Source: an uncultured virus (IMG/VR IMGVR_UViG_3300025313_000005) | Taxonomy: Duplodnaviria; Heunggongvirae; Uroviricota; Caudoviricetes | Length of the DNA stretch: 20,000 nucleotides | Direction: 5' to 3' (one strand) | IMG/VR virus record: IMGVR_UViG_3300025313_000005 | Shown: piece after piece, positions 963-18,305 of the stretch | How positions within the stretch are numbered: position 1 is the first letter of the stretch | Layout: every line of letters starts with the position of its first letter | Position numbers and translations under genes: made by a program | Notes under the pieces: generated by a model | The model's database searches: none | Seen by the model: only the letters and a program-made list of their open reading frames with translations | Told to the model about the DNA's origin: nothing

Positions 963-965
963 AAA

Positions 966-1904: not shown

Positions 1905-1916
1905 GGTTTAGCCTCC

Positions 1917-3423: not shown

Positions 3424-4149
3424 TTAGCTTTTTACTTTTTCTTTTGGCTTACTCGTTGATTCTCCAATCAATTGATTGATTACTTTGCTTACTTCAGATT
3501 GTGTTAAGTTGCCTTCTTGTAAACCAAAATCAGCAACTGTTTTGCTATGCTCTCCTAACAACTTAAACATAAGGTTCAGTGACTTTTCAGATGCTGGAGC
3601 GGGGTTGGTGTTATTAGATGTACTGCTAGAGTCGGTAGTTACTATTGGTTTTCTATTAAACTTATTAGGTGTTTTAATTGTTGTTACTGGAACTGGGGTA
3701 GTTAGTGTAGTATCAGAGGACATCTCTGTTGCGATCTCATCACTATCATCATATAGATGTAGACCAATACCTAATTGTGATGCAGCTTTCTTGATAGCAT
3801 CTGATGATGCTGCTTTATAATCATTACCCAAGTCTACTATAATACCAGCCTGGGTCTTTTTAACCTTAGCTGAACCAAAGCCTTGCTTTACTATTGTGGT
3901 ACCCTCATGTCGAACGGTTAATTCAACAACAACAACTATATTACCTTCGTCTGTTGCTGTACTTTCTGGCGTAAAATAAAGTATACGACTATCCACGTCA
4001 TGTCCAAATACTTCATTTAACCGCTCTAATACTGCATGAGTGGGGATATAACTAAGAACCTTACCCCCTTTATGTAATTCACGTTTTTTAATTAAACTAG
4101 GATCAAATTTCCTATTTATTTTTTCAACTATCTCTTTTGGCAAAAACAT
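3424..4149 (-). CDS. Rad52/Rad22-family (Sak-like) single-strand annealing protein
   Basis: LSYIP...VLERLNEVFG, VVVELTV...KQGFG, DYKAASSDAIKKAASQLGIGLHLY signature; low-complexity linker and C-terminal LTQSEVSKVINQL helix; RBS AAGGAGGT. Confidence 0.9.
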   Translation of the reverse strand: MFLPKEIVEKINRKFDPSLIKKRELHKGGKVLSYIPTHAVLERLNEVFGHDVDSRILYFTPESTATDEGNIVVVVELTVRHEGTTIVKQGFGSAKVKKTQAGIIVDLGNDYKAASSDAIKKAASQLGIGLHLYDDSDEIATEMSSDTTLTTPVPVTTIKTPNKFNRKPIVTTDSSSTSNNTNPAPASEKSLNLMFKLLGEHSKTVADFGLQEGNLTQSEVSKVINQLIGESTSKPKEKVKS

Positions 4150-4169
4150 TACGTATTACTTACCTCCTT

Positions 4170-4319
4170 TTATTTTACTAATATAGTTTTCTCTTTACTA
4201 CATACCGTACAACGTAATTTAGTACCCTTGCCAGCTTCACTGTGAACTCTCTGGCCCTTGCCATATCTTTTATCTTGGAATTCGTGTGAGCAATTACAAC
4301 CATATATTTGTGCTGGCAC
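4170..4319 (-). CDS. Small putative zinc-binding phage protein (49 aa, MPAQIYGCNCSHEFQDKRYGKGQRVHSEAGKGTKLRCTVCSKEKTILVK)
   Basis: Manual translation; GTG start right after the previous stop, AGGAGG RBS; CxC...CxxC pattern. Confidence 0.75.
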   Translation of the reverse strand: MPAQIYGCNCSHEFQDKRYGKGQRVHSEAGKGTKLRCTVCSKEKTILVK

Positions 4320-4583
4320 TTATACATCCTCCTTTCTTTTAATCTCATTGCGATCAAGGTTTTCTTGCAATCTATCTATGTCTTCTTTTGATAAATCACC
4401 AACCTTAATAGACTTGATATGTATGCCATCAAACAATACGCTTACAAGAAGCAATATAGAACCGCATCCAAGTATCATCCCAGCTATAACAGCTGGTAGT
4501 TGTTCTATTCTACCCCATGTAATTAGTACTGGTGAAGCAGCAATCGATAAGAGAACTAATACTATCTTAAATATCTTATTCAA
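4320..4583 (-). CDS. Small two-TM membrane protein
   Basis: Two hydrophobic stretches then charged tail; AAGGAG RBS; coupled to upstream ORF. Confidence 0.7.
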   Translation of the reverse strand: MNKIFKIVLVLLSIAASPVLITWGRIEQLPAVIAGMILGCGSILLLVSVLFDGIHIKSIKVGDLSKEDIDRLQENLDRNEIKRKEDV

Positions 4584-4797
4584 TAGTTTTCTCCTTCTGG
4601 TTTAGCTCTGGAAAGATATCTAACAGCATAACTAATATCCTACCCAGGCATTGCATCTCTACTTCTTCTTCGATACAGTTACCTTCTTTGTATGGATGTA
4701 CCAAACGCTCCAAAGGATACTTGCCATTAATACCCAAGTACCAATCTTCCACACCAGCATAAAATATTTCTAATCTCTTGGTTATTGATTTAGCCAT
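4576..4797 (-). CDS. Hypothetical protein with degenerate LL(G/N)I-type tag (QCLGRILVMLLDI)
   Basis: ORF with AAGGTG RBS, packed between neighbours. Confidence 0.65.
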   Translation of the reverse strand: MAKSITKRLEIFYAGVEDWYLGINGKYPLERLVHPYKEGNCIEEEVEMQCLGRILVMLLDIFPELNQKEKTIE

Positions 4798-4808
4798 ATT
4801 ACACCTTC

Positions 4809-5015
4809 TTATTCAAAAAATTCTTTATTGTAAATACCAAGTAAAAATTTGACTACAAGACTAGGCGTTGAAATCTCAGCATTTGGCGAACAAGATACCA
4901 ACTCATAACAATATGAAGTGTCAAGTTTGGTCTTTGCTACGTGCACACCCCAATGATTAATACCATGGTATATTGATATAGATTGATATAGAGAATTACA
5001 GCATTGTTTAATCAT
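4809..5015 (-). CDS. Hypothetical protein with C-terminal tag STPSLVVKFLLGI
   Basis: ATG overlaps the upstream stop; shared tag. Confidence 0.6.
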   Translation of the reverse strand: MIKQCCNSLYQSISIYHGINHWGVHVAKTKLDTSYCYELVSCSPNAEISTPSLVVKFLLGIYNKEFFE

Positions 5016-5232
5016 ATAAACATGGTACTTCTATACCAAAGAGTGCTTGACATACTATTGCTGGTGTTGTTGTATTAAGACCTCTGCATTTAGGATACAT
5101 AGCCCTAATCTTATTCATCTCACGGACGGTAATTCTTACCCGTAAATCTAGATAGTCATCCATAATATCTATTGCTACTACATTGGTTGAAGCTAATGGT
5201 GTTTTCATTTGAGTTGGCGCATACCATTCCAA
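5008..5232 (-). CDS. Hypothetical protein with C-terminal tag TTPAIVCQALFGI
   Basis: TTG start uncertain (frame stays open upstream to about 5328); shared tag. Confidence 0.55.
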   Translation of the reverse strand: MEWYAPTQMKTPLASTNVVAIDIMDDYLDLRVRITVREMNKIRAMYPKCRGLNTTTPAIVCQALFGIEVPCLYD

Positions 5233-5375
5233 CTTATCCTGTAGAGCACAATGAGCTAAATGGGATGGTGTTATAGATAGTCTACTCGACCACTTATTTG
5301 TTATAGTGTTCTTGAAAAATATTATTGTTTAATCAAACAATAAATTATACCTAACTTCGCTAACATACATATTAC

Positions 5376-5404
5376 TTGTATATCCTCCTATACTATGCTA
5401 TTAT
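5376..5404 (+). promoter_or_regulatory. Putative sigma70 extended -10 promoter for the lone plus-strand gene
   Basis: TTGTAT (5376-5381), 17 nt ending TGC, TATTAT (5399-5404). Confidence 0.55.
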
Positions 5405-5439
5405 TGTCTTTGTAAGCTACCTCAAATAAGAAAGGAGAT

Positions 5440-5670
5440 ATGTACATGGCTGCTTTCAAAGTTCGCTATATTAAACGTGGACTTAGGAACACTGAGTCTT
5501 TTATAGACCATAAGAACGGTATTGTTTTAACCTCAGACAATCCCGTTTCCGACGACCTCTCAGGACTTGCTGATTTAAGCATTATCCTACGTGGTCTTAA
5601 GATGGACCTTCTTAAGATAGAACAAGGTACGTTAGCTGATATCAACGTAACTACAAGTTACCACTACTAA
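5440..5670 (+). CDS. Hypothetical protein; only convincing plus-strand gene (start 5440 or 5446)
   Basis: AAGGAGA RBS, own promoter and terminator, no competing minus-strand ORF. Confidence 0.75.
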   Translation: MYMAAFKVRYIKRGLRNTESFIDHKNGIVLTSDNPVSDDLSGLADLSIILRGLKMDLLKIEQGTLADINVTTSYHY

Positions 5671-5751
5671 TTAAAACTTTGTCTTAAAAGACAATCACTA
5701 GATAAGATATGGACGAATACAACCCAAAGTTCTGGTGGTTATACGATCTGT

Positions 5752-5782
5752 GCGTATCCTTTGGGATACGCTTTTGTTTTTT
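5752..5782 (+). terminator. Rho-independent terminator
   Basis: GCGTATCC-TTTG-GGATACGC followed by TTTTGTTTTTT, between convergent genes. Confidence 0.85.
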
Positions 5783-5972
5783 ATTTGGCTATACCCAATA
5801 ACATCCCAATAACAAAATCTGGCGTAGCTATACCACTAGTCATTGTTGGTGGTATAGCACGATTAAAACAACACATATAACTACTAGCAATTATATAAAG
5901 CACTGAAGCATTACTACCACAGTAACAATTAAGAACGGCATTATTGCTATATGTAATTATATCATAAATCAT
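5781..5972 (-). CDS. Hypothetical protein with C-terminal tag ATPDFVIGMLLGI
   Basis: Overlaps upstream Zn-finger ORF; shared tag. Confidence 0.55.
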   Translation of the reverse strand: MIYDIITYSNNAVLNCYCGSNASVLYIIASSYMCCFNRAIPPTMTSGIATPDFVIGMLLGIAK

Positions 5973-6096
5973 TATCGTCTATACACACTTTCAAGCACTC
6001 TTCACATAAAGTCATAGGAGAGTTAACTGATATTTCTCCACAATTATCACACACATAGTCACCACTATCATACATTAAGTCATCTTTTTTATTCAT
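5962..6096 (-). CDS. Small CxxC-x12-CxxC zinc-finger protein (44 aa, MNKKDDLMYDSGDYVCDNCGEISVNSPMTLCEECLKVCIDDNDL)
   Basis: Manual translation; AGGAGA RBS. Confidence 0.7.
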   Translation of the reverse strand: MNKKDDLMYDSGDYVCDNCGEISVNSPMTLCEECLKVCIDDNDL

Positions 6097-6160
6097 ATCT
6101 ATCTCCTATAATATTAAGTAGTAATCTACATATTCTCTCAGTGGTTGCCTCATCATTCCA

Positions 6161-7438
6161 TTAAGTACCCTGCATAATCACACTACTACCCCAAGGAGCA
6201 GCTCTATCATGATCTTTAGTATATACCCATAGTACGGGGAACTTGGGTTTATCTTGTGGTGCAGTACCACAACCATCTGTAAAATAAACTACACCATCAA
6301 AAGATAATCTCTTTTCGGCTATGTAATCAAATGCAGGTCTAAAATCAGTACCTCCCCTACCTGTAAATTCATGAACTTCTTTACGTTTGAACTTATATAC
6401 AGCTCCAACCCTTGCATCTGATTCTATAATGGTTAGTTCTGTACTTTTATATCTTGATATAGTATTGAGCTCGTTTAGGAAAGCTGATAATTGCTTATTG
6501 TTTATCGATCCAGATGTATCTATAATAGCACACAGGTTGAGCTTACGCTCCCTGCAATATCCTGGCGGTAGCTGTAACCTACGATTATAACGTTTGAGCG
6601 TATAACGCCTGGTATTATTGCGTGTGCTAGTTACAAATCTACGAAGAACTACATTCCAAGGTACTTCACTATTTAATATTCTTCTAATAAGAGATTTAAT
6701 TTGTCCTGGCAGTTTCCCTTGTGTTTTAATATAAGCTTCTTGGAGCTCACCTTTTATTATACCTTCATAGTATTTTTTACTTATATCTTTATAATCAGCC
6801 ATGTCTTCTTCATCTGGAGTACCCCACATGCTATGGTCATCTATCATCTTTACCTCAGCTTTCCCTCCACCAGGCATTTTTAATTCTCCATCTTGCTCTA
6901 TTTTCTGACGTAAGAATTGATAGTAAACATTTGCAGAACTAAACCTAGAAGGAAAGTCATGATACTGCTCAAGAAATCCATCATAAGTTATATTTTCTTT
7001 TTCTAAAAAGTTAGATTCCATAAACTCATTAACCACAATATCACAAGCAATATTCCATAAAGTATGCTCTAAGACAATGGGTGTTCTTATTGGATGCATC
7101 ATTATTATGTGTAGAAATTCATGTTCTAAGACTGTCTGTATCTGATTCTGATTAAGCGATAAGACATAATGTGGATTAATACATAATATCAGACTTGTCG
7201 CACTCATACCTACACCCATTGTTGGGACGTTTTTGGTGCTAAAGATACGCTTAAACCGCATAAGAAGATAAGCATATAATGCTTTATCTCCTGCAATTAT
7301 CATGGAAGCAAGAGCGCTAGCAAATACCTGTTCTGCTTTTTTATACTCTACAGGACTCGCATCTTCCCCACTAGCCCACTTGGGTAGTTCTTTTTTATCT
7401 ACACTAGCAATACCATTATCAGCAATATCATTAGACAC
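6161..7438 (-). CDS. DUF2201-type HExxH metallopeptidase-like + vWA domain protein
   Basis: PTMGV, LEHEFLHII, WNIACDIVVN, IDDHSMW, IIDTSGSI (MIDAS), GRGGTDFRPAF, VVYFTDG; likely GTG start at 7438 overlapping the ATPase stop rather than 7501. Confidence 0.9.
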   Translation of the reverse strand: MSNDIADNGIASVDKKELPKWASGEDASPVEYKKAEQVFASALASMIIAGDKALYAYLLMRFKRIFSTKNVPTMGVGMSATSLILCINPHYVLSLNQNQIQTVLEHEFLHIIMMHPIRTPIVLEHTLWNIACDIVVNEFMESNFLEKENITYDGFLEQYHDFPSRFSSANVYYQFLRQKIEQDGELKMPGGGKAEVKMIDDHSMWGTPDEEDMADYKDISKKYYEGIIKGELQEAYIKTQGKLPGQIKSLIRRILNSEVPWNVVLRRFVTSTRNNTRRYTLKRYNRRLQLPPGYCRERKLNLCAIIDTSGSINNKQLSAFLNELNTISRYKSTELTIIESDARVGAVYKFKRKEVHEFTGRGGTDFRPAFDYIAEKRLSFDGVVYFTDGCGTAPQDKPKFPVLWVYTKDHDRAAPWGSSVIMQGT

Positions 7439-8597
7439 TTGCTGTTGCCTTCTTCTTTTCTTTCTCTTCCAACTCCAACTCTTGTTCAAGTAGTGTATCA
7501 AAGATATCTATCAGATGATGTTCGTTAGCAACATCTCTTGTCCTAACCACTTGACTAAACACTTCTTTATTTCTACATATTAATTTAAACAGATTAAACA
7601 ATCTTTGGTTACAACCTATTGCTCTCATAAAACTTACAACTAAATCAAGAGGAAGATCTATTATTAATAAACATATACTCTCGACAAAGCTAGACTGAGT
7701 AATGTTAGAGTCTATATACTTGTCAAGATACCTAGCCGTGTCATCTAATCCACGAGACAATACATCCATCTGTTGGTTTTGAATAAGCTTCTGAATTTTA
7801 GTGCGAATTTTTTTATAGTTTTCTACAAGAAGTTTAGAATCTAATGGTTGGTATTTGTCAATAACAAATCTCTTATATGATAGTCCACCAGCCTCACCGA
7901 TATTGCCCATAGCAATATCTAGAAATAAATCATAATCTTTCTTCTCAATGAATTTATCCAACTCAACTAACTTAAGTGCATTGCTTAAGCGTTCCCAACC
8001 TCTACGAGTTGGATAGGCTTGCCCCTTACTTGGGTCAAGATATATATTATCTTGCTTAATAAATTCGCAGACAGATTTGCATATATTATTTTTCTCTGCC
8101 CAACTCAACCACTCTTCAACTGTTGGTTCATATATTACTTTCCAGAACCTATCTTGCAACGCTATATCTAATGGAGATACATCATATCCATCTATCTCAG
8201 GATTTATAGCTGAGACAACAATACAATCTAGAGGCAATGTATGTGTATGTAATTTGAAATCTCTCACTAATTGAAAGATAGCTTGTTTTACATCCTGGGT
8301 ACCACGATTTAATTCATCTAAAAAGATAACAACTTTCTCGCCCTCTTTAGGCCACCAACTTGGGGGAGCCCAATAGGTATAACCGTCTTTAACTATAGGC
8401 ATACCTATTAAATCAGCCACTTCTTGCTGCCCTAATCTTAAATCTGCCAAACGATAACCTAATTCGCTTGCGACTTCAGCAACAACAGCCGACTTCCCTA
8501 TTCCATGCACCCCTTCTATCAGTAATGATACTCGATTACCGTTACCACTGTTCTGAATAAGTTTTCTTAGTACCTCTTGTAGCTGTAAAGTATTCAC
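7431..8597 (-). CDS. MoxR/dynein-related AAA+ ATPase
   Basis: Walker A GVHGIGKS, DLIGMP, Walker B VVIFLDELNR, SAINP sensor, ALQDRF Arg finger, PTRRGWE; paired with vWA gene. Confidence 0.92.
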   Translation of the reverse strand: MNTLQLQEVLRKLIQNSGNGNRVSLLIEGVHGIGKSAVVAEVASELGYRLADLRLGQQEVADLIGMPIVKDGYTYWAPPSWWPKEGEKVVIFLDELNRGTQDVKQAIFQLVRDFKLHTHTLPLDCIVVSAINPEIDGYDVSPLDIALQDRFWKVIYEPTVEEWLSWAEKNNICKSVCEFIKQDNIYLDPSKGQAYPTRRGWERLSNALKLVELDKFIEKKDYDLFLDIAMGNIGEAGGLSYKRFVIDKYQPLDSKLLVENYKKIRTKIQKLIQNQQMDVLSRGLDDTARYLDKYIDSNITQSSFVESICLLIIDLPLDLVVSFMRAIGCNQRLFNLFKLICRNKEVFSQVVRTRDVANEHHLIDIFDTLLEQELELEEKEKKKATASV

Positions 8598-8659
8598 CTA
8601 CCAATACCTCTTTCTTTATTATATTCTAATATCAATACCCAGTAATGCTCTTACTATAT

Positions 8660-9646
8660 CTACACATATTGTTTTCTCATATAAGCCAGATCAGCCTTAC
8701 CGAGCTCTTCTCCTAATACATCTAGTTCTATTAACCTTATTTTATGTCCCATAATCTCACATACATGTGTATTATCTTTAAACCAACGTATGGTCTTAGG
8801 ATTAATATCTTTTAATCTACTTGCTTCATCTTGATATTGCTCTCTTGCTTTAAACATATGAGCTGGACATGTATTTTCCTCTAAAGACATTTGCCTTAAT
8901 TTGACAATACTTAAATACCTACTTTCGTCTTCCCCTCTCGGACGTGACATTGTTTGTGGCTCGCCTTGTGTTCTAACATATCCCCTATCTTTCTGTACTC
9001 TGGAATATCCATGGCTTTGATCGGAGTTCCATGTTGCATTAATATTATTAGTTATCTCTTTATCTACAAACGCACCAGTTACAGCACACCGCCATAAAGG
9101 AAGATGTGGTTGATCTTTTATGTCCTGAACACTTCTCTCGTAGGGTTGATTTCTAAAGCTGTTTTCTTTATCTCTACATGCGAAGGAGCAATTACTACAA
9201 TTACGATATTGACTTACGTTATTATTACGTCTGTAAGCAGGCCACTCTTCTCCATACAATCCTTTAACAACCAGTCTAGGTACTCCATAGAATAATACGG
9301 GCGATATATTTCTTCCTAGATTATAACCATCTAGGATATTTATCTGAGGAATACCTGGCTGATAAGTGCGCAGAGCTTGCTGTATCTTACTTAGAATATC
9401 ACCATCTACCCCTTGCTTTGCAAGGGTAGATGTTATGTGTTGATTGGTTTCTTGCGTATTACCTAATGCCCAACTAGCCCAAAATCTATAACCAATTGTT
9501 TGGGTAGTATCCTTAATCTTATATATCCACCCCCTATAAGATATACTATTGCTTTCATCTACTATGAAATCAAACTGAGCAATACGTTCATTTCCACTCT
9601 TGTTTGTGACGCTACACTTCTGTGCTCTTACATACATGAACATCAC
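8660..9646 (-). CDS. Hypothetical protein with dispersed Cys/His cluster (CSNC..AC, WRC, CPAH); probable start 9637
   Basis: Long ORF; GAGGTG RBS best spaced for ATG 9637. Confidence 0.8.
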   Translation of the reverse strand: MMFMYVRAQKCSVTNKSGNERIAQFDFIVDESNSISYRGWIYKIKDTTQTIGYRFWASWALGNTQETNQHITSTLAKQGVDGDILSKIQQALRTYQPGIPQINILDGYNLGRNISPVLFYGVPRLVVKGLYGEEWPAYRRNNNVSQYRNCSNCSFACRDKENSFRNQPYERSVQDIKDQPHLPLWRCAVTGAFVDKEITNNINATWNSDQSHGYSRVQKDRGYVRTQGEPQTMSRPRGEDESRYLSIVKLRQMSLEENTCPAHMFKAREQYQDEASRLKDINPKTIRWFKDNTHVCEIMGHKIRLIELDVLGEELGKADLAYMRKQYV

Positions 9647-9661
9647 CTCTTGTTAAAAGAT

Positions 9662-9757
9662 AGCTTGCGAAGCAAGCTTCGTTTACTTAGACCACCTGAA
9701 AAGCAAGACGTCAAGGCTTTAAGCGAAGCGTGCCTTGACGTTGAAGCTGCAGGTGGT
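9662..9757. repeat. Structured intergenic element, copy 1
   Basis: AGCTTGC-GAA-GCAAGCT hairpin, 12 nt, ACCACCTG/CAGGTGGT outer stem enclosing ACGTCAAGGC/GCCTTGACGT inner stem; homologous to 14923-15013. Confidence 0.85.
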
Positions 9758-9779
9758 TGCAGTTTATTTTAATTTTTCT

Positions 9780-10040
9780 TTATATATTTAATAATATTCT
9801 TGCTAGATTACTAGGCGTTGCAGGTGTAGGTGAAACATTATTGAAATCAGAATATATCCCTGGTTGATGGACTTTCTTTATAACAGATGGTGTAATATAA
9901 GTAATTGAATTTGCTTTTAAGAACTGATTATTATCAAATCTACTATCATATATCTCGTAAACTTTACTTCTTAGTAAGTATGATATACCCATAATATTGA
10001 TAGTTAAATATATTTCATACGGAAGTAATTGATTAGACAT
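9780..10040 (-). CDS. Hypothetical protein with C-terminal tag ATPSNLARILLNI
   Basis: ORF; shared tag. Confidence 0.6.
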   Translation of the reverse strand: MSNQLLPYEIYLTINIMGISYLLRSKVYEIYDSRFDNNQFLKANSITYITPSVIKKVHQPGIYSDFNNVSPTPATPSNLARILLNI

Positions 10041-10092
10041 GTGTTTCTTCTTCTTATGAAATACCTAGTAATAACATAGACACATTTCTCTC

Positions 10093-10377
10093 TTAGCTCC
10101 TGCCAATGTCTGGATATGCTTTTGGGGCTGCAGGATAATTAGTACCTCTTGTAGGTCCATCAGCACCTACCAATGAATTAATTCTACTATGGAAGTGAGG
10201 TCTATTGCTACCAAATATCTTAGGGAACATAGACGTACTAAATTCTTGCACGGTTATTATCTCACTAGCAAAGAGAGTTTGTGCTTGAGCCCTAGCATCA
10301 ATTAAGCTTAATGCATCTATTATAAAATCATCGTAGCCACCTCTACGGTGGCTTATGTGTACTAAAAATTGAGGCAT
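10093..10377 (-). CDS. Hypothetical protein
   Basis: AAGGAG RBS; in-frame tag copy after its stop. Confidence 0.7.
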   Translation of the reverse strand: MPQFLVHISHRRGGYDDFIIDALSLIDARAQAQTLFASEIITVQEFSTSMFPKIFGSNRPHFHSRINSLVGADGPTRGTNYPAAPKAYPDIGRS

Positions 10378-10435
10378 ACTATCTCCTTCTTATGGGTATT
10401 CCTAGTAATGCTGAAACTAATATATATAGAAATAC

Positions 10436-10810
10436 TCATAGTGGTCTCAGATGTAATTCTATTTTATCTTCGTACGTATTAATATCACAGTTAGAACACG
10501 AACATATAATGAGAAACCCCCTACCATTTTCTGGAAGTTCTCCATCAATAGAACATAGGCTATCGATTGGTAGACCCTGAGATATTATCCTTACGCCATC
10601 GGCCTTATCCACAACTAAATCAAACATATGAGATGGAGTGTGTAGTGCGTTAATGGCCGCTTCATGGAAAGCCACGGCTAATTGAATACCAAATAATCTA
10701 CATACAGCCCTTCTAAGGGCTCTTATTTGTAGTCTATCTGATGCATCATATGAACCCTCATGCCTATTGTTCAATTTAATATCATGGCGTAAACCAGTGA
10801 GTAATCCCAT
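10436..10810 (-). CDS. Hypothetical protein
   Basis: AAGGAGGT RBS; in-frame tag copy after its stop. Confidence 0.7.
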   Translation of the reverse strand: MGLLTGLRHDIKLNNRHEGSYDASDRLQIRALRRAVCRLFGIQLAVAFHEAAINALHTPSHMFDLVVDKADGVRIISQGLPIDSLCSIDGELPENGRGFLIICSCSNCDINTYEDKIELHLRPL

Positions 10811-10815
10811 GTCAG

Positions 10816-11037
10816 CTACCTCCTTAAGTTAAGTAACATAATAACCATGTGTGATAGAGTACAAAAACACTCCTCGTCCCTATTAAGAGGGTCTGCATGT
10901 TTTATTGGTGTATCCTCCTGAATTCCATGAGGATTTATCGTGATAAATCTACAAAAATTATTCTCATAACATATATGTAGGTAGTTTATTGTACACTTCA
11001 TTGAATGATATACGGCTACAGGGTTCATATTATTCAT
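10816..11037 (-). CDS. Hypothetical protein with C-terminal tag CTLSHMVIMLLNL
   Basis: ORF packed between neighbours; shared tag. Confidence 0.55.
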   Translation of the reverse strand: MNNMNPVAVYHSMKCTINYLHICYENNFCRFITINPHGIQEDTPIKHADPLNRDEECFCTLSHMVIMLLNLRR

Positions 11038-11041
11038 TGCT

Positions 11042-11245
11042 TTAATTCATATGTGCATTCGGCATATGTTCTGGTTTATGTCCTGTTTCTTCTTTGTATC
11101 TCTCCACAATATTATCTACTACCTCTTGTGCTTCTTCGTGGGTATCAAATATAACTTGAAATATCTTATTTGTATCACCATCTTCTACTCGAACGATCCA
11201 TTTATTAGTCATAACACTATAACCTAATTGTAATCTAGCTGGCAT
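11042..11245 (-). CDS. Hypothetical protein
   Basis: AAGGAG RBS; beta-beta-alpha pattern ending FDTHEEAQEVV. Confidence 0.75.
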   Translation of the reverse strand: MPARLQLGYSVMTNKWIVRVEDGDTNKIFQVIFDTHEEAQEVVDNIVERYKEETGHKPEHMPNAHMN

Positions 11246-11345
11246 AAACTTCTCCTTCTTATATTAAATTTAGTATATGTTTAGTAATTGTTTAACCAGT
11301 ATATATAGCGATGCCAAATGCTTCAATTCCTCTCTCTATACTCTC

Positions 11346-11594
11346 TTAGTCATAGGCTTTATAGATAGTAAGGCATGGTCCCGCAGGAGGAACCAATACC
11401 AATTGAGTATCCCTCCTATGTTTCATCTTAACAGGTATAAATATCTGCCTATCTTGTAACCATGTAGCTATTATAGATGTGCTTAATCTATACCTACCTT
11501 TTTGAATTATATTTTTAGGTTTACGTCTAAGACTTAGTTTATTCTTCTGCATGTAAAATATGGTTCTCCTCTTCTTCGTCGTAAATAGAGCCAT
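11346..11594 (-). CDS. Basic hypothetical protein (start may be the internal MQKNK)
   Basis: ORF; GAGGAG precedes the internal ATG. Confidence 0.5.
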   Translation of the reverse strand: MALFTTKKRRTIFYMQKNKLSLRRKPKNIIQKGRYRLSTSIIATWLQDRQIFIPVKMKHRRDTQLVLVPPAGPCLTIYKAYD

Positions 11595-11635
11595 CTATGG
11601 CGCTTTATCCACGGTCCTATCGTGGAGGGGAATAG

Positions 11636-11896
11636 CTAAATATTTAATAGTGTTTTACAAAACGAACTTAAACAAGCGATATCATCTTCATATAATAAAT
11701 TGATAAGCGCAGTACCTGATGCAGATGTTATAATATTAGGATAAACATAATATGATTTATAGTTTCTACACCAACCGACGCTAGACATTGAGCCCTCATA
11801 TATAACCATTATGCCTTCAGAATTAAAAGGCTTAGTAGTAGGATCGGGTAAGTTAAGGATCTTATTTATTCTTTCCATAGAAGATAGCCACAGCAT
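11636..11896 (-). CDS. Hypothetical protein with C-terminal tag ACLSSFCKTLLNI
   Basis: ORF; start possibly 11878; shared tag. Confidence 0.55.
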   Translation of the reverse strand: MLWLSSMERINKILNLPDPTTKPFNSEGIMVIYEGSMSSVGWCRNYKSYYVYPNIITSASGTALINLLYEDDIACLSSFCKTLLNI

Positions 11897-12105
11897 GGTT
11901 TGCCATAGTGTGGTGGTTTCTTATAATGTCTAAAATAGTAATCATAGTTGTATCCCTTTGGATAGTTACGAAAGTACATCTCCTCTTTAGCATATGTATG
12001 TGTTGCTTCATAAAGAACTATTAAGGCGCGTGGTATAAAATTCCTTATCCAAAAATTTATTAGCATTGTGGGGTTCAAATACAAATACGCTTTATATGTG
12101 AACAT
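11866..12105 (-). CDS. Hypothetical protein
   Basis: Overlaps both neighbours in coupled fashion. Confidence 0.45.
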   Translation of the reverse strand: MFTYKAYLYLNPTMLINFWIRNFIPRALIVLYEATHTYAKEEMYFRNYPKGYNYDYYFRHYKKPPHYGKPCCGYLLWKE

Positions 12106-13006
12106 TTACTTGTCCGTCCTTAACTACTAATTCGTCATATGTTTTAGTTTGTAATCCCTTATGTAATACTAGTGTAGCCATAGATACTACATCACAATAT
12201 TTAATGGTAGCTACAGGATAATAATTAATATTTAATTCCTTAGCCATATCTTTAATAACCCGCCATACCGCATCGATTTGATCTTCTGCTTTATCTTTTT
12301 TATCTTTAATATATTTAGTTGTTCCCCTAGCTCGCATCATCGTAATAGCTAATTGTCCGCCATGATGAAGCTTACTTAATGCTAGCTCAATTGTTTTACC
12401 TTCTTCCGCCTTGACCTTGCCACAATAATCCAAATAAATCAGATCGTATTTGTTTTTTGTATCCCATAAGAACTCATAGATATTCTCATGATGTACGTGA
12501 ACATTGTTCTTATAGGCTGCTCGTGCTTTAACAGCAGCACAAACATAGCTGTGTATGTTGTGTTCTATTGAGTCTATTTGTGTACCAGGATTATACTTTA
12601 ATATCTCTGGTATATCATGTAGGTATGGTCCACCTAGAATAAGTATTTTAGGCTGTTTCTTACTATATAGACTTCGCTTGGCATATCTATACACAAGCTG
12701 TCTATTGATAGCTTTATTAATACCATCAAAAGGTAGTTGTTGCTTAATCCTATCTATTAAATCACTAGATTTATTTAGAGTAATAACATTAGCAGTACGA
12801 TAACCTTTATTAAATTGAATTAACCCAAGCTTATGCATACGTTGAATGAATCCACGCGCTTCAACGTAACTCTTATATCTACGTAACTCTGGTACAGATC
12901 TATAGAGGTCCGCAATAGAGTCTACTTGTTTGTGTTGTTCCAAATAGTCAATAGTAGCCTGCATGCGGTCTACTGCTTTCTTGCGAGTAATAGATGGATT
13001 ACTCAT
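12092..13006 (-). CDS. Class I SAM-dependent methyltransferase with N-terminal wHTH-like region
   Basis: KILILGGP (motif I-like), IDSIEHN (motif II), HENIYEFL, YDLIYLDYCG, LHHGGQLAIT. Confidence 0.8.
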   Translation of the reverse strand: MSNPSITRKKAVDRMQATIDYLEQHKQVDSIADLYRSVPELRRYKSYVEARGFIQRMHKLGLIQFNKGYRTANVITLNKSSDLIDRIKQQLPFDGINKAINRQLVYRYAKRSLYSKKQPKILILGGPYLHDIPEILKYNPGTQIDSIEHNIHSYVCAAVKARAAYKNNVHVHHENIYEFLWDTKNKYDLIYLDYCGKVKAEEGKTIELALSKLHHGGQLAITMMRARGTTKYIKDKKDKAEDQIDAVWRVIKDMAKELNINYYPVATIKYCDVVSMATLVLHKGLQTKTYDELVVKDGQVNVHI

Positions 13007-13065
13007 AGGAAGATCCTTCTTTCTCTAGATTGCTTCTTTAATCTTACTTATATTTATACTAGTAG

Positions 13066-13263
13066 TCATATTCCTAGTAATAATTTACATACCATATGAG
13101 GTGTTGCAATATCTTCACTAGAACATATCTTACTTTGATCATATTTTTGTGATCGTGATATGATAGCATTTCTAAATATACCAACGAGGAATAAAACTTC
13201 ACCCGTATCATTTCCAGTTTTATCAATGTGAACATTAGCATAACCAAATATCCACTTCTCCAT
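13066..13263 (-). CDS. Hypothetical protein with C-terminal tag ATPHMVCKLLLGI
   Basis: ORF; shared tag. Confidence 0.6.
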   Translation of the reverse strand: MEKWIFGYANVHIDKTGNDTGEVLFLVGIFRNAIISRSQKYDQSKICSSEDIATPHMVCKLLLGI

Positions 13264-13281
13264 TTCGGTTATTAGTTACAT

Positions 13282-13665
13282 TTAATAACCCATCAGTCTT
13301 CTCATAAGTGACTCACAGAAGGCAAGATTACCATCTCTACACATCTGTAATTTCATAGAGAACTCATAGTCATTCATGGGTGGTTGTGTATATGATGAGT
13401 TAGCTTCGTAATATGTACGATTAGGTACATAGCCTGGTTGAATAGGTATTGTTTGCAGGTTATATGGTCTAGGGTATGGCTCATAATACTGTTGTTGATA
13501 GATTGGATAAGGTTGGCATCTATGCTGTCCTTGTATAGCCTGAGTTAAAGTTAGAATACCAATAGCTAGGTTAATTGGATTAATCTGATCTGCATAAGAT
13601 ACCCTAACTGGTATTAAACATATGGCTAATAACAATATACACACTGTTTTATTTGCTGTTCTCAT
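13282..13665 (-). CDS. Putative exported protein, Pro/Tyr/Gln-rich
   Basis: Signal-peptide-like N-terminus (basic, hydrophobic, SYA-D). Confidence 0.65.
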   Translation of the reverse strand: MRTANKTVCILLLAICLIPVRVSYADQINPINLAIGILTLTQAIQGQHRCQPYPIYQQQYYEPYPRPYNLQTIPIQPGYVPNRTYYEANSSYTQPPMNDYEFSMKLQMCRDGNLAFCESLMRRLMGY

Positions 13666-13855
13666 TGAATAACCCCATTCCTGTTAAAAATGACATAGGA
13701 AATGCTATAGCACAACTTAGAATGATTCCCAATAACATATCAATATTATGATCTATATAATACAAAGTACTAGCTGCGCCGTATTGGAACACTGTTATTA
13801 TTAGTATATTAATTAATACTTTTAATATTATATTTAACTTCATAATTACCTCCAC
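13649..13855 (-). CDS. Small two-TM membrane protein (probable start at MKLNII)
   Basis: GGAGGT RBS before the internal ATG; two hydrophobic segments. Confidence 0.65.
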   Translation of the reverse strand: MEVIMKLNIILKVLINILIITVFQYGAASTLYYIDHNIDMLLGIILSCAIAFPMSFLTGMGLFNENSK

Positions 13856-13870
13856 TTTTATTGACTACGC

Positions 13871-14101
13871 TTATATCCCCAGTAGTATTCGTGCAATAAC
13901 AGACGGTGTAGACTTTTCATAATTATCTCTTGGACGCATTTTTCTGACTCGTTGTTTTGATGAATCAATATACGTAGAAAAAACCAATATATCAGAAGAT
14001 ATATTGGCTTGTAATTTTAATATCAAAGTTGCCGCATGTTTTGCACGTAATGTACGTTTTCTATCATCAAATATTTCAATGTTTTGATTAGTCATTTTCA
14101 T
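13871..14101 (-). CDS. Hypothetical protein with C-terminal tag STPSVIARILLGI
   Basis: Coupled to upstream ORF; shared tag. Confidence 0.6.
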   Translation of the reverse strand: MKMTNQNIEIFDDRKRTLRAKHAATLILKLQANISSDILVFSTYIDSSKQRVRKMRPRDNYEKSTPSVIARILLGI

Positions 14102-14297
14102 ACATCCAACTATAGAATACAGGATCTATGCCAGAATTGCATATTCTATTCTCTAATATCTTAACTAGACACGTAGAACTACACGTGTATATGTTATCCG
14201 ACTTTAATTTAAAGAGAGCGAGTTCCTTACAATACCCACATATCTCTTTGTTGGGAACTATAGTTTCTACTAAATTATGAAAGATCATATACTTCAT
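14088..14297 (-). CDS. Small CxxC...CSxxC zinc-finger protein
   Basis: ICGYC...YTCSSTC; AGGGGTG RBS. Confidence 0.65.
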   Translation of the reverse strand: MKYMIFHNLVETIVPNKEICGYCKELALFKLKSDNIYTCSSTCLVKILENRICNSGIDPVFYSWMYEND

Positions 14298-14370
14298 AAT
14301 ATGTTACACCCCTAATAATTGACGTACTAGTGTACTTGAACTAGCTACTCGATCTTTATAAAGAGGAGGC

Positions 14371-14402
14371 GCAGGAGCGCCCCCTCTATTAGGCGCTCCT
14401 GC
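14371..14402. terminator. GC-rich intergenic hairpin
   Basis: GCAGGAGCGCC/GGCGCTCCTGC 11-bp stem downstream of 14427-14894; weak U-tract. Confidence 0.5.
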
Positions 14403-14426
14403 TATAGGAGGGAAAACAATGTAGTT

Positions 14427-14894
14427 TTACTTATGATTACGTTCTTCAGCTTTAGTTAACTGATCAATAGGATCTACTATCTGAATATACTCTCTTGTAT
14501 CCGTTATCATACCACGCTCTATTACTTCACTGGGAGTTGTATATGCTTGTTTAAGTTGACTAAAGAATCCAAGCTTACGTATCTGTACTTGAGGACGCAT
14601 GCGCTCATTAAATGGTTCACTAATACTTATCATATAATCTATCTCGTAGGTATTACCATTCTTACCTGTTTTGGGTATACTTACTTTTTGATTTAGTATA
14701 TTAATTATAACATCTGTCTTTTTGCTCTTAAAGCTCTTATTGCGTTCACCTGTGGTGAACTTGGCTATAACCCCAGCTAATGCCACCTTAAGAGGTATGG
14801 TATCAAATACACGCAGTTCTAATTTGCGCGGAGAATCAACAGCACCTTGAACCTGACTTGCTACTTCTTCTGTAATTATTTCTTTTATTATCAT
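14427..14894 (-). CDS. Hypothetical beta-rich basic protein
   Basis: AAGGAG/AAGGA RBS; preceded by structured element copy 2. Confidence 0.8.
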   Translation of the reverse strand: MIIKEIITEEVASQVQGAVDSPRKLELRVFDTIPLKVALAGVIAKFTTGERNKSFKSKKTDVIINILNQKVSIPKTGKNGNTYEIDYMISISEPFNERMRPQVQIRKLGFFSQLKQAYTTPSEVIERGMITDTREYIQIVDPIDQLTKAEERNHK

Positions 14895-14922
14895 ATCCTT
14901 ATGCTCCTTTTAAATTAAGATG

Positions 14923-15013
14923 AGCTTGCGAAGCAAGCTTATAAACCCCGCACCACCTGTAACGTGAAGAAGTCAAGGGATGTTTTGTCCCTTGACTTCA
15001 AGCGGCAGGTGGT
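14923..15013. repeat. Structured intergenic element, copy 2
   Basis: AGCTTGC-GAA-GCAAGCT, 12 nt, ACCACCTG/CAGGTGGT enclosing GAAGTCAAGGGA/TCCCTTGACTTC. Confidence 0.85.
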
Positions 15014-15023
15014 AGATAAAGTA

Positions 15024-15185
15024 CTATTTAGAATTTAATGTTTCATATAAGAGATTAGCACAGTCTTCACTGCATATAAATGCTCTCATATCTTCATCAT
15101 ACCATTGAGTTATACTGCCACATTGCATACAATTTGTTTTCTTATTAGTTAGTATTAAATAATCTTGATAAATATTATTATCCAA
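15024..15185 (-). CDS. Small CxxC...CSxxC zinc-finger protein (TNCMQCG...FICSEDC), 5' end possibly disrupted
   Basis: Manual translation, 53 aa from TTG; the best RBS+ATG (15246) opens a different 12-codon frame. Confidence 0.55.
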   Translation of the reverse strand: MDNNIYQDYLILTNKKTNCMQCGSITQWYDEDMRAFICSEDCANLLYETLNSK

Positions 15186-15262
15186 TTTATCACTTCTCTA
15201 TAATGATCTATAAAAAATCAAAAAACTTTTGTTGTTCTGGATTCATAAACCCCTACTCCATT

Positions 15263-15508
15263 TCAGATTCTAGTATCTTTCCTACTACTAACTCCACACA
15301 TCCAACATGTAAAAGAGTGTACAATAAAGATAAAAGACAAAGCAATATATTCAGATATATCACGCGTACTTAGTGCTATATAAAGAAGAAGTGATATCCC
15401 TGTAATAATAATACACAATACAATACTAAACATTATTAAAGTATGGACCATTACTTCGATATGCGTCTTCGGCTTGCTTATATAGTCCAAGTAATGCAAA
15501 TACCACAT
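15263..15508 (-). CDS. Small two-TM membrane protein (probable start 15451)
   Basis: Two hydrophobic segments. Confidence 0.5.
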   Translation of the reverse strand: MWYLHYLDYISKPKTHIEVMVHTLIMFSIVLCIIITGISLLLYIALSTRDISEYIALSFIFIVHSFTCWMCGVSSRKDTRI

Positions 15509-15686
15509 GGTAAGGCGTACAAATAGAATTTGTTGGAATATGGTTTTCTGTGTTAATAATACTTATATTATTTATTTTAATTTTTTTAAAACGATTAAAA
15601 TCTTGCATGAACAATACGGACACTTCAAGTTCACTATTACTCCAGCAGTAAACAGTTTTTTTATGATTCATAGTATACCAATTCAA
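15426..15686 (-). CDS. Hypothetical protein with near-C-terminal tag CTPYHVVFALLGL
   Basis: ORF; shared tag followed by a 17-aa tail. Confidence 0.55.
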   Translation of the reverse strand: MNWYTMNHKKTVYCWSNSELEVSVLFMQDFNRFKKIKINNISIINTENHIPTNSICTPYHVVFALLGLYKQAEDAYRSNGPYFNNV

Positions 15687-15700
15687 AGAGAGCTGTTGGT

Positions 15701-15955
15701 TTATTTTGGTCCATTAGAATCCACTTGTTTGATAAAAGATTTAGCTACAGCAGTAATAATCACACCTATTATACAACAAGCAACTACTATCATGACTAGA
15801 GGGAGAGATATAAAACATAAGGTAGCTATAGCAAGAAATAGTATACCGTAGCCTACTACTTGAGCGGCTTGTGTGTGATAAAGAGCTGCTGCTACTACTC
15901 CTAATATAATTAATATTAGTAACATTGTAAACATATCATTCCTCCTTGATGTCAC
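15701..15955 (-). CDS. Small membrane protein (probable start MFTML)
   Basis: Highly hydrophobic; AAGGAGG RBS before the internal ATG. Confidence 0.7.
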   Translation of the reverse strand: MTSRRNDMFTMLLILIILGVVAAALYHTQAAQVVGYGILFLAIATLCFISLPLVMIVVACCIIGVIITAVAKSFIKQVDSNGPK

Positions 15956-16451
15956 CTATAAGTTTGCTTAAAATTTTATTTACTTTACTTTCTCCAATGC
16001 TATTAATTTGTTGCTCAAGACAATTTAACAAACCAGACTTATTATCTGGATCTCTCCATAGTACTATTCTAGCATAAATGCTCCTATTGGTGCATAGAAC
16101 TATAAATAATGGATAATTATTCTCGCCGATAAAAACCATTAACTGAATTGCTTCTTTTATAGGAAGTATTTCACCAATTAAAATCTTAAGTAAGTCTATG
16201 TCATCTAATGTAAGTTTTTCATTATTAATAACACGACGCAAGTTTTCTAACTTATTATATAATACAGTAGTCTTAGTTTTTGCTAACTCAGTTCCTTCAT
16301 CCTGAAAAGGTATGCGATATGCCTTTGGCTTGTTATTAAGAATATTGATAATTAATCCAGAGTATTTACTATAACAATCATCCAAGTTTATTACTACATT
16401 AACTATTTCTTTAACTAACTGCTCAAGTTTTGTCTTGGTTAGTGTTGCCAT
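15936..16451 (-). CDS. Hypothetical protein
   Basis: AGGAGA RBS, 171 aa. Confidence 0.75.
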   Translation of the reverse strand: MATLTKTKLEQLVKEIVNVVINLDDCYSKYSGLIINILNNKPKAYRIPFQDEGTELAKTKTTVLYNKLENLRRVINNEKLTLDDIDLLKILIGEILPIKEAIQLMVFIGENNYPLFIVLCTNRSIYARIVLWRDPDNKSGLLNCLEQQINSIGESKVNKILSKLIGDIKEE

Positions 16452-16835: not shown

Positions 16836-18305
16836 TTATATTGCATAGCTATTAAGCCTTGCTCTGATATCAGCAAAAGTATGCTCGACTAGTAATTTAC
16901 CATCGCGGTGAACTTCTATTAGTTGATCGTTGAATATGTGATTTTCTGGTAGTTTATCAATGTATATAAGCTGATTGTCTTCACCAATAGATACTACTGC
17001 TACTCTACCTCTTTGAGATTTCTTCATACCACTATCTGTCTTAGGATCTTTAAAGATTTGTTTTTCTTCACCATCAATAACACATAGAGTTGACTTCAAA
17101 GCAAAACCAAAAGTATCACGAGTATTATATTGATAGGTATACGACCCGATACCAAAGACAGCATTAATAGAAGCAAACCCTTTAGCTGCTAGACGAGTAA
17201 CTATTTCTTCAGCACGATGCATAGTGATAGCATCACCATATATTAATCCTATATGAGAATCAAGTAATTTATATCCCTTCTCTGTAATAGTCCCACCAAA
17301 TATATCCCATAAAGCCTCTATAGCACCTTTCTTGATTAGTTCCGTTTCTCCATTAGGATCGCCGCACACTATCAATACTGGATCGCCACTGTCGGGACGT
17401 ATCACCACCCTTCCATTTCGTGTCAGGATATCATCCTTAAGTATAGGAACTACTCTACCCACTACATCCCAAAAATCATATCCGTCTGATACTATAGATA
17501 CAAATCCTGATGGGTGTACTCGATTTATTATATTGCGTAGATATTCTTCATCATTGCCATATGCACATTGTATACTATGTTCTGTAGCTGGTATAGAAGT
17601 GCCTACTAATTCTGTCTCTACGTTAGCACTATAGTATATTTCTGCGCCCTGTATAGCTGGTATTGTATCTGTCCCTACAAATGATAGCAGGTGCCCCATA
17701 CCACTAGATATAGCTGAATCTAATGATGACATGCCACGCATAGAGAAATCATGTCCTTGAAATTGAACGAAGTCTATGTTACCTACGGTATCCATTGCTG
17801 CTTTATCAAGTATGCGTCTGTATTCATGTGCTATGGTGGCTGAAGTAGACGCCTGCCATAGCTCACATGAAGCCAATGTTTCTATATAATTTGTTAACCA
17901 AAAGAATTTAGGATGTGTGTTTTGTATTGTAAGCATAGGTACATGAATGGGTACTAACGTACCCTCAGGTAGAGCCTTAATTGACAGTGGTAAATAACCC
18001 AGATCATGTAGGTCCTCTATGTGCTGTGTTTCTGGGTTAGTAACTCCTAGAGTAGATCTAACTATACGAACATATTCTTTTACAACTTCTTCTTTGGGCC
18101 TATCAAAAAAATGTTCTTTAAAAAAGGTAATTAGATACTTCTTAATAAAAGCCTGTAGTCCAAAGACAACCACACTATCAATACCTTGTATTCTACTAAC
18201 TCGCGGAGTCCACGTAGAGTATACCATCTCCGTACCTACAGGGTACATTGCTCTGTGTGATAGCTTATAGAAATCACATAGTAACATAGCCGATAGGCTA
18301 TGCAT
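16836..18305 (-). CDS. nadV: Nicotinamide phosphoribosyltransferase family protein (NAMPT/NadV-like; probable Namat of NARP1)
   Basis: CDFYKLSH, HDFSMRG, SIPATEHS, SIVSDGYD, VIRPDSGDP, IYGDAIT, RDTFGFALK, KDPKTDSGMKKSQRG motifs. Confidence 0.95.
   Translation of the reverse strand: MHSLSAMLLCDFYKLSHRAMYPVGTEMVYSTWTPRVSRIQGIDSVVVFGLQAFIKKYLITFFKEHFFDRPKEEVVKEYVRIVRSTLGVTNPETQHIEDLHDLGYLPLSIKALPEGTLVPIHVPMLTIQNTHPKFFWLTNYIETLASCELWQASTSATIAHEYRRILDKAAMDTVGNIDFVQFQGHDFSMRGMSSLDSAISSGMGHLLSFVGTDTIPAIQGAEIYYSANVETELVGTSIPATEHSIQCAYGNDEEYLRNIINRVHPSGFVSIVSDGYDFWDVVGRVVPILKDDILTRNGRVVIRPDSGDPVLIVCGDPNGETELIKKGAIEALWDIFGGTITEKGYKLLDSHIGLIYGDAITMHRAEEIVTRLAAKGFASINAVFGIGSYTYQYNTRDTFGFALKSTLCVIDGEEKQIFKDPKTDSGMKKSQRGRVAVVSIGEDNQLIYIDKLPENHIFNDQLIEVHRDGKLLVEHTFADIRARLNSYAI

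Follow-up and report, generated by a model that had tools for sequence, protein, structure and literature searches.

A recurrent near-C-terminal peptide tag on small, fast-diverging proteins of a large soil phage, with a putative role in docking on a shared partner

We analysed a 20,000-nucleotide stretch of DNA (hereafter the window) from an uncultured large soil phage with a length of ~180 kb (IMG/VR record IMGVR_UViG_3300025313_000005), in which a series of small open reading frames (ORFs) carries a common peptide tag at or near the C-terminus. The tag is a motif of 13–16 residues, roughly [ASC]-[TC]-[PL]-x-x-h-h-x-h-L-L-[GND]-[ILM], lying 0–18 residues from the stop codon. The substantial ORFs of the window are all on the minus strand, with a G+C content of 30–38%, and the window sequence was also found within a 180,683-bp metagenome contig. 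A first-pass annotation of the window had listed ten such peptides, and all ten were present at the places it gave, on the minus strand and near the ends of ORFs. They are given below with lengths in amino acids (aa) and with the score that each ORF obtained from a hidden Markov model (HMM) trained without it (leave-one-out).

15426..15686, minus strand: tagged ORF of 86 aa with a TTG start; motif at 15483-15521, CTPYHVVFALLGL, then 18 residues; leave-one-out score 10.8 bits
13871..14101, minus strand: tagged ORF of 76 aa; motif at 13874-13912, STPSVIARILLGI, then the stop; leave-one-out score 16.7 bits
13066..13263, minus strand: tagged ORF of 65 aa; motif at 13069-13107, ATPHMVCKLLLGI, then the stop; leave-one-out score 18.3 bits
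11636..11896, minus strand: tagged ORF of 86 aa; motif at 11639-11677, ACLSSFCKTLLNI, then the stop; leave-one-out score 12.3 bits
10816..11037, minus strand: tagged ORF of 73 aa; motif at 10825-10863, CTLSHMVIMLLNL, then RR; leave-one-out score 12.1 bits
9780..10040, minus strand: tagged ORF of 86 aa; motif at 9783-9821, ATPSNLARILLNI, then the stop; leave-one-out score 10.0 bits
5781..5972, minus strand: tagged ORF of 63 aa; motif at 5790-5828, ATPDFVIGMLLGI, then AK; leave-one-out score 10.0 bits
5008..5232, minus strand: probable tagged ORF of 74 aa; motif at 5032-5070, TTPAIVCQALFGI, then 7 residues; 20.7 bits in training, 3.8 bits when left out
4809..5015, minus strand: tagged ORF of 68 aa; motif at 4833-4871, STPSLVVKFLLGI, then 7 residues; leave-one-out score 18.1 bits
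4576..4797, minus strand: doubtful member of 73 aa; motif-like stretch at 4615-4653, QCLGRILVMLLDI, then 12 residues; leave-one-out score −2.8 bits

Start codons are uncertain for several members, and a clear Shine-Dalgarno sequence is wanting in most; the gene caller's version of ORF 15426-15686 (P0008) starts later and has 60 aa.

A regular expression derived from the listed peptides gave 8 matches in the six frames of the window; the number expected was 0.098 from 500 shuffles of the DNA (maximum 2) and 0.0105 from 2000 shuffles of the residues in 63 minus-strand segments (maximum 1). Because the expression had been derived from its own matches, leave-one-out HMMs were also run, using 12 members and the 546 six-frame segments of 30 kb. 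The results showed that 10 of the 12 members scored 10.0–22.2 bits, while every non-family segment scored 6.7 bits or less. The comparison with shuffled controls that the first-pass annotation had named as a check, run on the window, thus placed the motif far above the controls. Its count of ten tagged ORFs held in part: eight passed leave-one-out scoring, ORF 5008-5232 is probable as judged by eye (rank 20 when left out), and ORF 4576-4797, already entered there as a weaker case, was unsupported (rank 357 of 546).

The tag census covered the window, a 10-kb stretch outside it and past its position 1 (L003), and a near-identical virus record of 161,400 bp (G001) that differs by one mismatch across 14,074 overlapping bases. 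In G001, a plus-strand block holds genes of replication and nucleotide metabolism (DnaE, SSB, RecA, UvrD, ribonucleotide reductase, ThyX and dUTPase), and a minus-strand block holds structural genes (portal, capsid, terminase and baseplate). The window falls in the former, and from its gene content and strand the tagged region is presumably early. Two further tagged ORFs were found in L003, between a classical AAA ATPase gene and the DnaE gene. Across G001, the 12-member HMM recovered 11 trained members and 7 further matches of 8.5–14.1 bits, all on the plus strand between 2.7 and 29.7 kb, whereas the best score elsewhere in the 161 kb was 7.6 bits. Among 6625 segments scanned, 8 of the 9 untrained matches of at least 8 bits lay in the early-strand region, which makes up 18% of the residues. 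Four of the G001 matches are the tails of intact ORFs of 84–89 aa, and a second iteration added an ORF of 100 aa. The family thus comprises at least seventeen intact ORFs of 63–100 aa, together with 4 relics, and the intact ORFs, which occur in runs, all share the coding strand of a single ~43-kb region devoted to replication and nucleotide metabolism.

To determine the level at which the motif is conserved, we compared its codons. Where two copies share a residue, they also share the codon in 122 of 350 pairs (0.349), which is at chance, codon usage alone predicting 0.336. Nucleotide identity among copies of the 39-nt motif averages 0.48, and their Leu residues are spelled with six codons and their Ser residues with five. 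Synonymous sites are saturated, and selection therefore acts on the peptide, as codon variation among the listed copies had earlier been taken to indicate. Same-codon use at chance level, together with 48% nucleotide identity, further shows that the conservation is entirely at the peptide level and that the copies are old. These codon data refute the reading of the motif as a translated DNA or RNA element (a promoter, terminator or recombination site), which we regard as practically excluded: the motifs do stand at gene ends, where such signals occur, but all matches are in the coding frame of the coding strand, and an Rfam scan was empty.

Among the 17 intact ORFs, positions 2–3 of the motif are Thr-Pro in 10, another residue plus Pro in 4 and [TC]-Leu in 3. 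Position 8 is Lys or Arg in 12, position 10 is Leu throughout, and position 11 is Leu in 16 and Phe in 1; position 12 is Gly (11), Asn (4) or Asp (2), with no other residue, and position 13 is Ile, Leu or Met. An acidic residue or Ile often precedes the motif, and the 10 residues on its N-terminal side are 63% polar, compared with 52% in the rest (P = 0.027). Column hydrophobicity has its periodicity peak at 100 degrees (0.39, compared with 0.30 at 180 degrees), and positions 4, 8 and 12 form a single polar stripe. The tag ends the protein in 7 members, is followed by 1–2 residues in 3 and by 4–18 residues in 7.

Thr-Pro is a typical N-cap/N1 pair of helices, and the left-handed C-cap position can be occupied by Gly, Asn and Asp. 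The earlier description of the tag as a capped helix fits the 100-degree period, the restriction of position 12 to these three residues, and the helix present in both of two low-confidence AF2 single-sequence models. The model of ORF 13871-14101 is all-helical with a helix at residues 68-75 (pLDDT 76), and that of ORF 13066-13263 has a helix at residues 56-62 (pLDDT 47.5, too poor to judge the fold). We infer that the tag is a self-contained, capped, mostly hydrophobic alpha-helix of about two and a half turns behind a polar linker. The helix would start at Pro, with Thr capping its N-terminus, ~200 degrees of the helix surface would be hydrophobic, and position 12 would take the left-handed C-cap conformation, with the last Ile or Leu folding back. 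A strand-like pattern upstream of the linker, noticed post hoc in 8 of 12 members (5.67 expected, P = 0.13), was dropped, and a helix-turn-helix reading was rejected by eye and had no support in Pfam.

Four further copies of the motif, read here as relics, lie outside intact tagged ORFs of the window.

6092..6160, minus strand: relic of 23 codons, WNDEATTERICRLLLNIIGDRYE, in frame and directly after the TAA stop of the DUF2201/vWA protein (6161-7501); 14.1 bits, compared with 7.6 bits for the best match outside the region
10382..10435, minus strand: relic of 18 codons, VFLYILVSALLGIPIRRR, in frame and directly after the TGA stop of a 124-aa ORF (10436-10810); 9.6 bits with the 12-member HMM
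8622..8690, minus strand: relic of 23 codons ending in TICVDIVRALLGIDIRI, in the −1 frame and overlapping the end of a 328-aa ORF (8660-9646); 9.2 bits
11273..11335, minus strand: open stretch of 21 codons ending in ASLYILVKQLLNIY, inside a decayed region; 10.0 bits with the 12-member HMM

The DUF2201/vWA protein has homologues in many phages (phrog_1314), and its DUF2201 domain extends to residue 443 of 446. The in-frame relics behind this protein and behind the 124-aa ORF suggest that the tag can sit on other, unrelated proteins, and the vWA protein would more likely have carried the tag once than be its reader. The relic at 8622-8690 could be joined to the 328-aa ORF by a one-base slip at an A run. 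Because a tRNA scan of G001 found none encoded, and hence no suppressor, we prefer to read the relics as probably lost tags rather than as programmed recoding. Next to the relic at 11273-11335 stands an annotated 82-aa ORF (11346-11594, minus strand), which is very basic and of low complexity. Because of this low complexity, and because the adjoining relic tag is in a different frame, it is probably not a real gene and rather part of a decayed family member.

Database searches did not place the tag or its carriers in a described family. The ten members of the window had no Pfam match below E 0.069 and no PHROG match below E 0.011, and the two members searched with PADLOC had no match. The motif profile found nothing better than E 2.6 among PDB sequences, the ESM Atlas gave no usable match, and homologue searches with ORF 13871-14101 and with the member alignment brought back nothing beyond proteins of the window itself and 99% copies. 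When a profile of the C-terminal alignment was searched against 1.84 billion representatives, 11 matches reached E ≤ 0.001, of which 8 were window proteins and 3 repeat proteins; since the two L003 members were also not returned, this search is no evidence that the tag is absent elsewhere. A degenerate DNA pattern gave 4 matches in IMG/VR, all chance-like. A keyword search of open-access text found no description of such a tag, which is weak evidence of absence.

We propose that the tagged proteins are a fast-diverging family held together by one helix that docks on a shared partner, a reading to which we give about even credence. The docking is putative, and the candidates for the partner come from the gene neighbourhood. 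The helix would be a plug fitting every family member into one groove of the partner, and the variable bodies would all be brought to, or handled by, the same machine. These bodies comprise 48–83 residues, followed by the short polar stretch and then the tag. Over 136 body pairs, the mean Smith-Waterman score was 22.2, compared with 21.6 for shuffles, and a Gibbs search of the bodies found no shared block (W6, 149.6 vs 149.7 ± 3.7; W8, 180.7 vs 182.4 ± 3.3).

Several findings weigh against this proposal. The bodies of 10816-11037 and G001 24350-24619 share an N-terminal stretch whose score of 49 exceeds those of all 2720 shuffled pairs (N-terminal phmmer, E 0.0016–0.0019), and two more reciprocal body pairs are borderline (phmmer, E 0.014–0.03). 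Intact tags occur in 16 of 52 early-strand ORFs of 60–100 aa and in none of the 60 larger ones. With its strong hydrophobicity (mean Eisenberg H 0.23–0.78), the helix could be buried in the core of its own protein, and the AF2 models, at their low confidence, establish neither the fold nor the exposure of the helix. The tag is not strictly terminal, which speaks against a reader that requires a free carboxylate, and its apparent link to the Clp and AAA genes described below is one of neighbourhood.

The common size class, the clustering on one strand within ~43 kb and the decayed copy fit a single paralogous gene family. From the size class, the related body pair and the decayed copy together, the tagged proteins look like one lineage-specific multigene family that duplicates, diverges fast and decays, and the earlier description of the carriers as unrelated proteins was not upheld. 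The first-pass annotation had named one divergent paralogue family with a shared fold as an outcome that would refute its proposal; by size class, body pairs and decayed copy, a family of this kind is what the data now look like. An ordinary divergent paralogue family with no shared reader, in which the helix is kept as the folding nucleus or self-association element of a common small fold, is thus a serious possibility, although we consider it somewhat doubtful. It would suit the narrow length range of the intact members, their runs on one strand, the decayed copy at 11273-11335, the body pairs and the hydrophobicity of the helix. However, Thr-Pro, Leu-Leu, the Gly/Asn/Asp position and Ile have been kept over saturated synonymous sites, which argues for a constraint outside the variable body, and a separate small gene in decay would not readily explain the in-frame relics that follow the vWA protein and the 124-aa ORF. 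Moreover, a body surface that receives a core helix should be conserved; because no shared block or above-shuffle similarity is seen, an origin as one family does not, in our view, refute docking.

Two further readings concern the helix or its end as such. Terminal amphipathic helices of MinD and FtsA bind at the membrane interface, and the tag could likewise bring small proteins to the cell membrane: it is short, stands at or near the C-terminus behind a polar linker, has Lys or Arg at position 8 in 12 of 17 members, and small membrane-protein ORFs adjoin three members (4320-4583, 13649-13855 and 15701-15955). We find this unlikely, since amphipathicity is not conserved (hydrophobic moment 0.14–0.65), the helix lacks a net positive charge in 5 of the 12 members examined, 4–18 residues follow it in seven members, and Thr-Pro, Leu-Leu and the Gly/Asn/Asp cap are fixed in the tag, where a lipid-binding helix would conserve its general character instead of particular residues. 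Alternatively, the last six residues (x-h-L-L-G-I/L) might plug into the pocket of a host or phage beta clamp. One type of clamp-binding motif is a C-terminal hexapeptide, whose consensus has a defining Gln at the first position. In favour of this, a DnaE-type polymerase (PF07733, E 5e-76) is encoded by the phage itself and immediately preceded by two tagged genes, of which the second stops one base short of the polymerase start, and in 7 of the 17 intact members nothing follows the motif. Nevertheless, only 1 of 17 has Gln at the corresponding position, where 12 have Lys or Arg, 6 of 17 carry Asn or Asp at position 12, and the helical spacing extends over 13–16 residues, far beyond an extended clamp motif of 5–6 residues, so that a clamp-binding tail seems very unlikely. 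A complex prediction for B. subtilis DnaN with ORF 13066-13263 (ipSAE 0.00 and 0.01) is evidence neither way.

The class of partner that we deem most plausible is the phage's own proteostasis set, for which the following candidates were found.

G001 26282-26833, plus strand: ClpP-like protease (CLP_protease PF00574, E 5e-23), in the replication block, among tagged genes
G001 150581-151729, minus strand: single-ring Clp-type ATPase (AAA_2 + ClpB_D2-small; phrog_4871, E 7e-90), in the late-strand block, between portal and terminase
L003, directly upstream of the two tagged genes: classical AAA ATPase of 391 aa (PF00004)
Window 108-2751, minus-strand cluster: ThiF-family E1 (PF00899, E 1.2e-19), which also matches the E1 part of PADLOC E1-E2 models
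Window 108-2751, minus-strand cluster: JAB-like ORF, a weak match (E 0.0048, below the Pfam cut-off)

By eye and without an alignment, Ser, His and Asp are kept in the ClpP-like protease at what we take to be the positions of the ClpP catalytic triad, and the Clp-type ATPase has a Leu-Gly-Phe tripeptide where, presumably, the ClpP-docking loop of Clp ATPases lies. A separate, weak head-protease candidate adjoins the portal gene in G001. In the E1/JAB cluster, the two genes are adjoined by a 205-aa orphan and by a 78-aa ORF that is ThiS/MoaD-like by eye but ends in Pro-Gly-Arg. These two ORFs, guessed to be an E2 and a ubiquitin-like protein (Ubl), respectively, had no support in Pfam, NCBIfam, PADLOC or PDB sequences.

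The E1/JAB pair raises the question of whether the tagged proteins could themselves be its substrates or modifiers, their tails being cut back to the Gly for activation by the ThiF-like enzyme, in the way of ubiquitin-like proteins. Both genes lie inside the tagged-gene region, and 10 of the 17 intact members have trimmable residues after Gly-Ile. We hold this to be highly improbable: the tag has no Gly-Gly, six of the 17 members carry Asn or Asp at position 12, the periodicity is that of a helix and not of a strand, the better AF2 model (pLDDT 76) is all-helical rather than a beta-grasp, and Ubl or E2 support is lacking for the two neighbouring ORFs.

Since the ClpP-like protease, both ATPases and the E1/JAB pair are all genes of the phage itself, our first guess is that the docking helix serves as a private tag for targeting or degradation. 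The tag could be a private degron or adaptor tether, and a tag on early proteins combined with a late-made unfoldase as reader would let those proteins be cleared at a set time; in another version, the bodies could act as receptors and bring targets in. The full form of this idea, in which the helix is an address read by the phage proteostasis machinery (the ClpP-like protease with the Clp-type or classical AAA ATPase, perhaps also E1/JAB) and the mini-proteins are either a receptor library or early effectors cleared on time, is tentative, and we think it rather unlikely. As receptors, the bodies would each capture their own host or defence protein and hand it over, in the manner of F-box and BC-box proteins. 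As effectors, they would be removed on schedule once the late-strand Clp ATPase appears. In either version, the relic tags behind larger genes would be a record of proteins that joined the targeting system and then left it.

Adaptors and degrons of Clp machines offer the closest bacterial comparison. SspB has a ClpX-binding tail, and ssrA-type tags are terminal degrons with a non-polar C-terminus and a free carboxylate. SPO1 Gp53, described as an adaptor-like protein for host ClpCP (PMC6873191), sets a precedent for the engagement of a Clp ATPase by an early phage protein. The tagged proteins share with these systems the succession of body, polar linker and short terminal peptide that would address a Clp machine, as well as a phage-encoded protease and ATPase of this kind, and the polar stretch seen in the sequence before the tag might correspond to an SspB-like tether. 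They differ in that the tag is a capped helix of 13–16 residues rather than a short extended peptide, in its presence on at least 17 proteins of one phage, and in that, compared with an ssrA-type degron, it ends the protein in only 7 of 17 and is internal by 4–18 residues in another 7. In F-box and SOCS/BC-box receptors, and in poxvirus ankyrin proteins with a C-terminal F-box-like domain, many proteins use one shared docking module. There too, differing bodies carry one short, mainly helical C-terminal module for a single hub, and the families expand and decay in a viral genome. These families are eukaryotic and dock on cullin ligases, whereas the phage module is much shorter and its host bacterial, so that the likeness is one of logic only.

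Two phage systems also invite comparison. The T4 internal proteins have an N-terminal capsid-targeting sequence that is removed by the prohead protease. Like the tag, it is a phage-private short address peptide on otherwise differing small proteins, but the tag is C-terminal, and the genes that carry it stand in the replication block, far away from those of the head. Clamp-binding tails are carried by T4 gp33, gp55 and gp43. Phage Mu MuC is reported as a case of C-terminal clamp binding (PMC12867686, PMC2988020). The likeness to such tails lies in a short, hydrophobic, near-C-terminal peptide in a phage with its own replicative polymerase, and in the two tagged genes before DnaE; the difference lies in the defining Gln, which is lacking in 16 of 17, and in the longer span with helical spacing.

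Relatives of this phage are distant. A megablast of window 4500-16000 against phage GenBank and a tblastn with ORF 13871-14101 gave no match. Identities to the nearest phages, all of them distant, were 34% for the MoxR AAA+ protein, 27–29% for the vWA protein, 60–64% for NAMPT and 35% for DnaE. An IMG/VR scan with the AAA+ protein returned a single relative (L001, 34%), which lacks the tag motif both in its 15 kb and in its 75-kb record (G002); an IMG/VR scan with E1 and a genome contig scan with the 328-aa ORF found nothing. Soil and groundwater metagenome runs X15–X17 (2016, possibly one campaign) cover at least one third of the stretch, and 14 rows of possible sources were set aside. Contigs of runs X16–X19 revealed a relative of ~85% identity across the E1, JAB, 328-aa, NAMPT and Prs genes, to which most of the small-ORF region does not align, its stretches being skipped or replaced. 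Since the conserved genes align to this relative and the small-ORF stretches do not, it is chiefly the small genes that turn over. The relative, another strain or species with ~85% nucleotide identity, co-occurs in runs X16 and X18 (compared at window 1123-1245, 4118-7929 and 18287-18485).

The other genes of the window named from Pfam and PHROGs encode the ThiF-type E1, a Rad52/Erf-type annealing protein, a methyltransferase-like protein, NAMPT, a ribose-phosphate pyrophosphokinase, the DUF2201 metallopeptidase-like/vWA protein with a MoxR-type AAA+ protein, and the weak JAB match. NAMPT and the ribose-phosphate pyrophosphokinase-like gene adjoin each other at window 16836-19095 (minus strand) as a NAD-salvage pair, and the match of NAMPT to Bacillus and Alicyclobacillus phage versions (60–64% identity) is the sole hint at a host. 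ORFs with a Cys-x2-Cys...Cys-x2/3-Cys zinc-ribbon pattern interleave with the tagged genes (window 14088-14297, 5962-6096, 15024-15185, 4170-4319 and 2768-2980; L003 10003-10224 and 10208-10387). Two of them, 14088-14297 and 5962-6096, overlap with their ends the start of the next tagged gene (13871-14101 and 5781-5972) by 14 and 11 bases, respectively; a rough count puts this pairing at no more than chance level. Among plus-strand genes of the window, a single one is convincing (5440-5670, 76 aa); it has a good ribosome-binding site and occupies a 550-bp gap between minus-strand genes, with a terminator-like hairpin at 5752-5771 and a T run on its 3' side; window 5430-5750 is among the few parts of the small-ORF region that align to the ~85% relative in run X18. 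Elsewhere in G001, an RF-1-domain protein of 139 aa (37481-37900), a peptide deformylase (22902-23393) and an RNA ligase (36070-37026) form a small translation and RNA-repair set, and the late strand (82300-88939 and 135414-136247) encodes five clustered glycosyltransferases, a polysaccharide pyruvyl transferase and also a patatin-like phospholipase.

Large phages hold hundreds of small orphan genes, and an address shared by seventeen of them provides one experimental handle on the whole set, because finding the one reader of the tag would place all of these proteins in a pathway. If the reader is the phage's own Clp/AAA machinery, the tag would belong to a virus-encoded, tag-directed system of targeting or degradation in bacteria, and an orthogonal pair of tag and reader might then become a tool. 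If the tagged proteins are only a paralogue family, they would show how far protein bodies can drift while one helix is held fixed.

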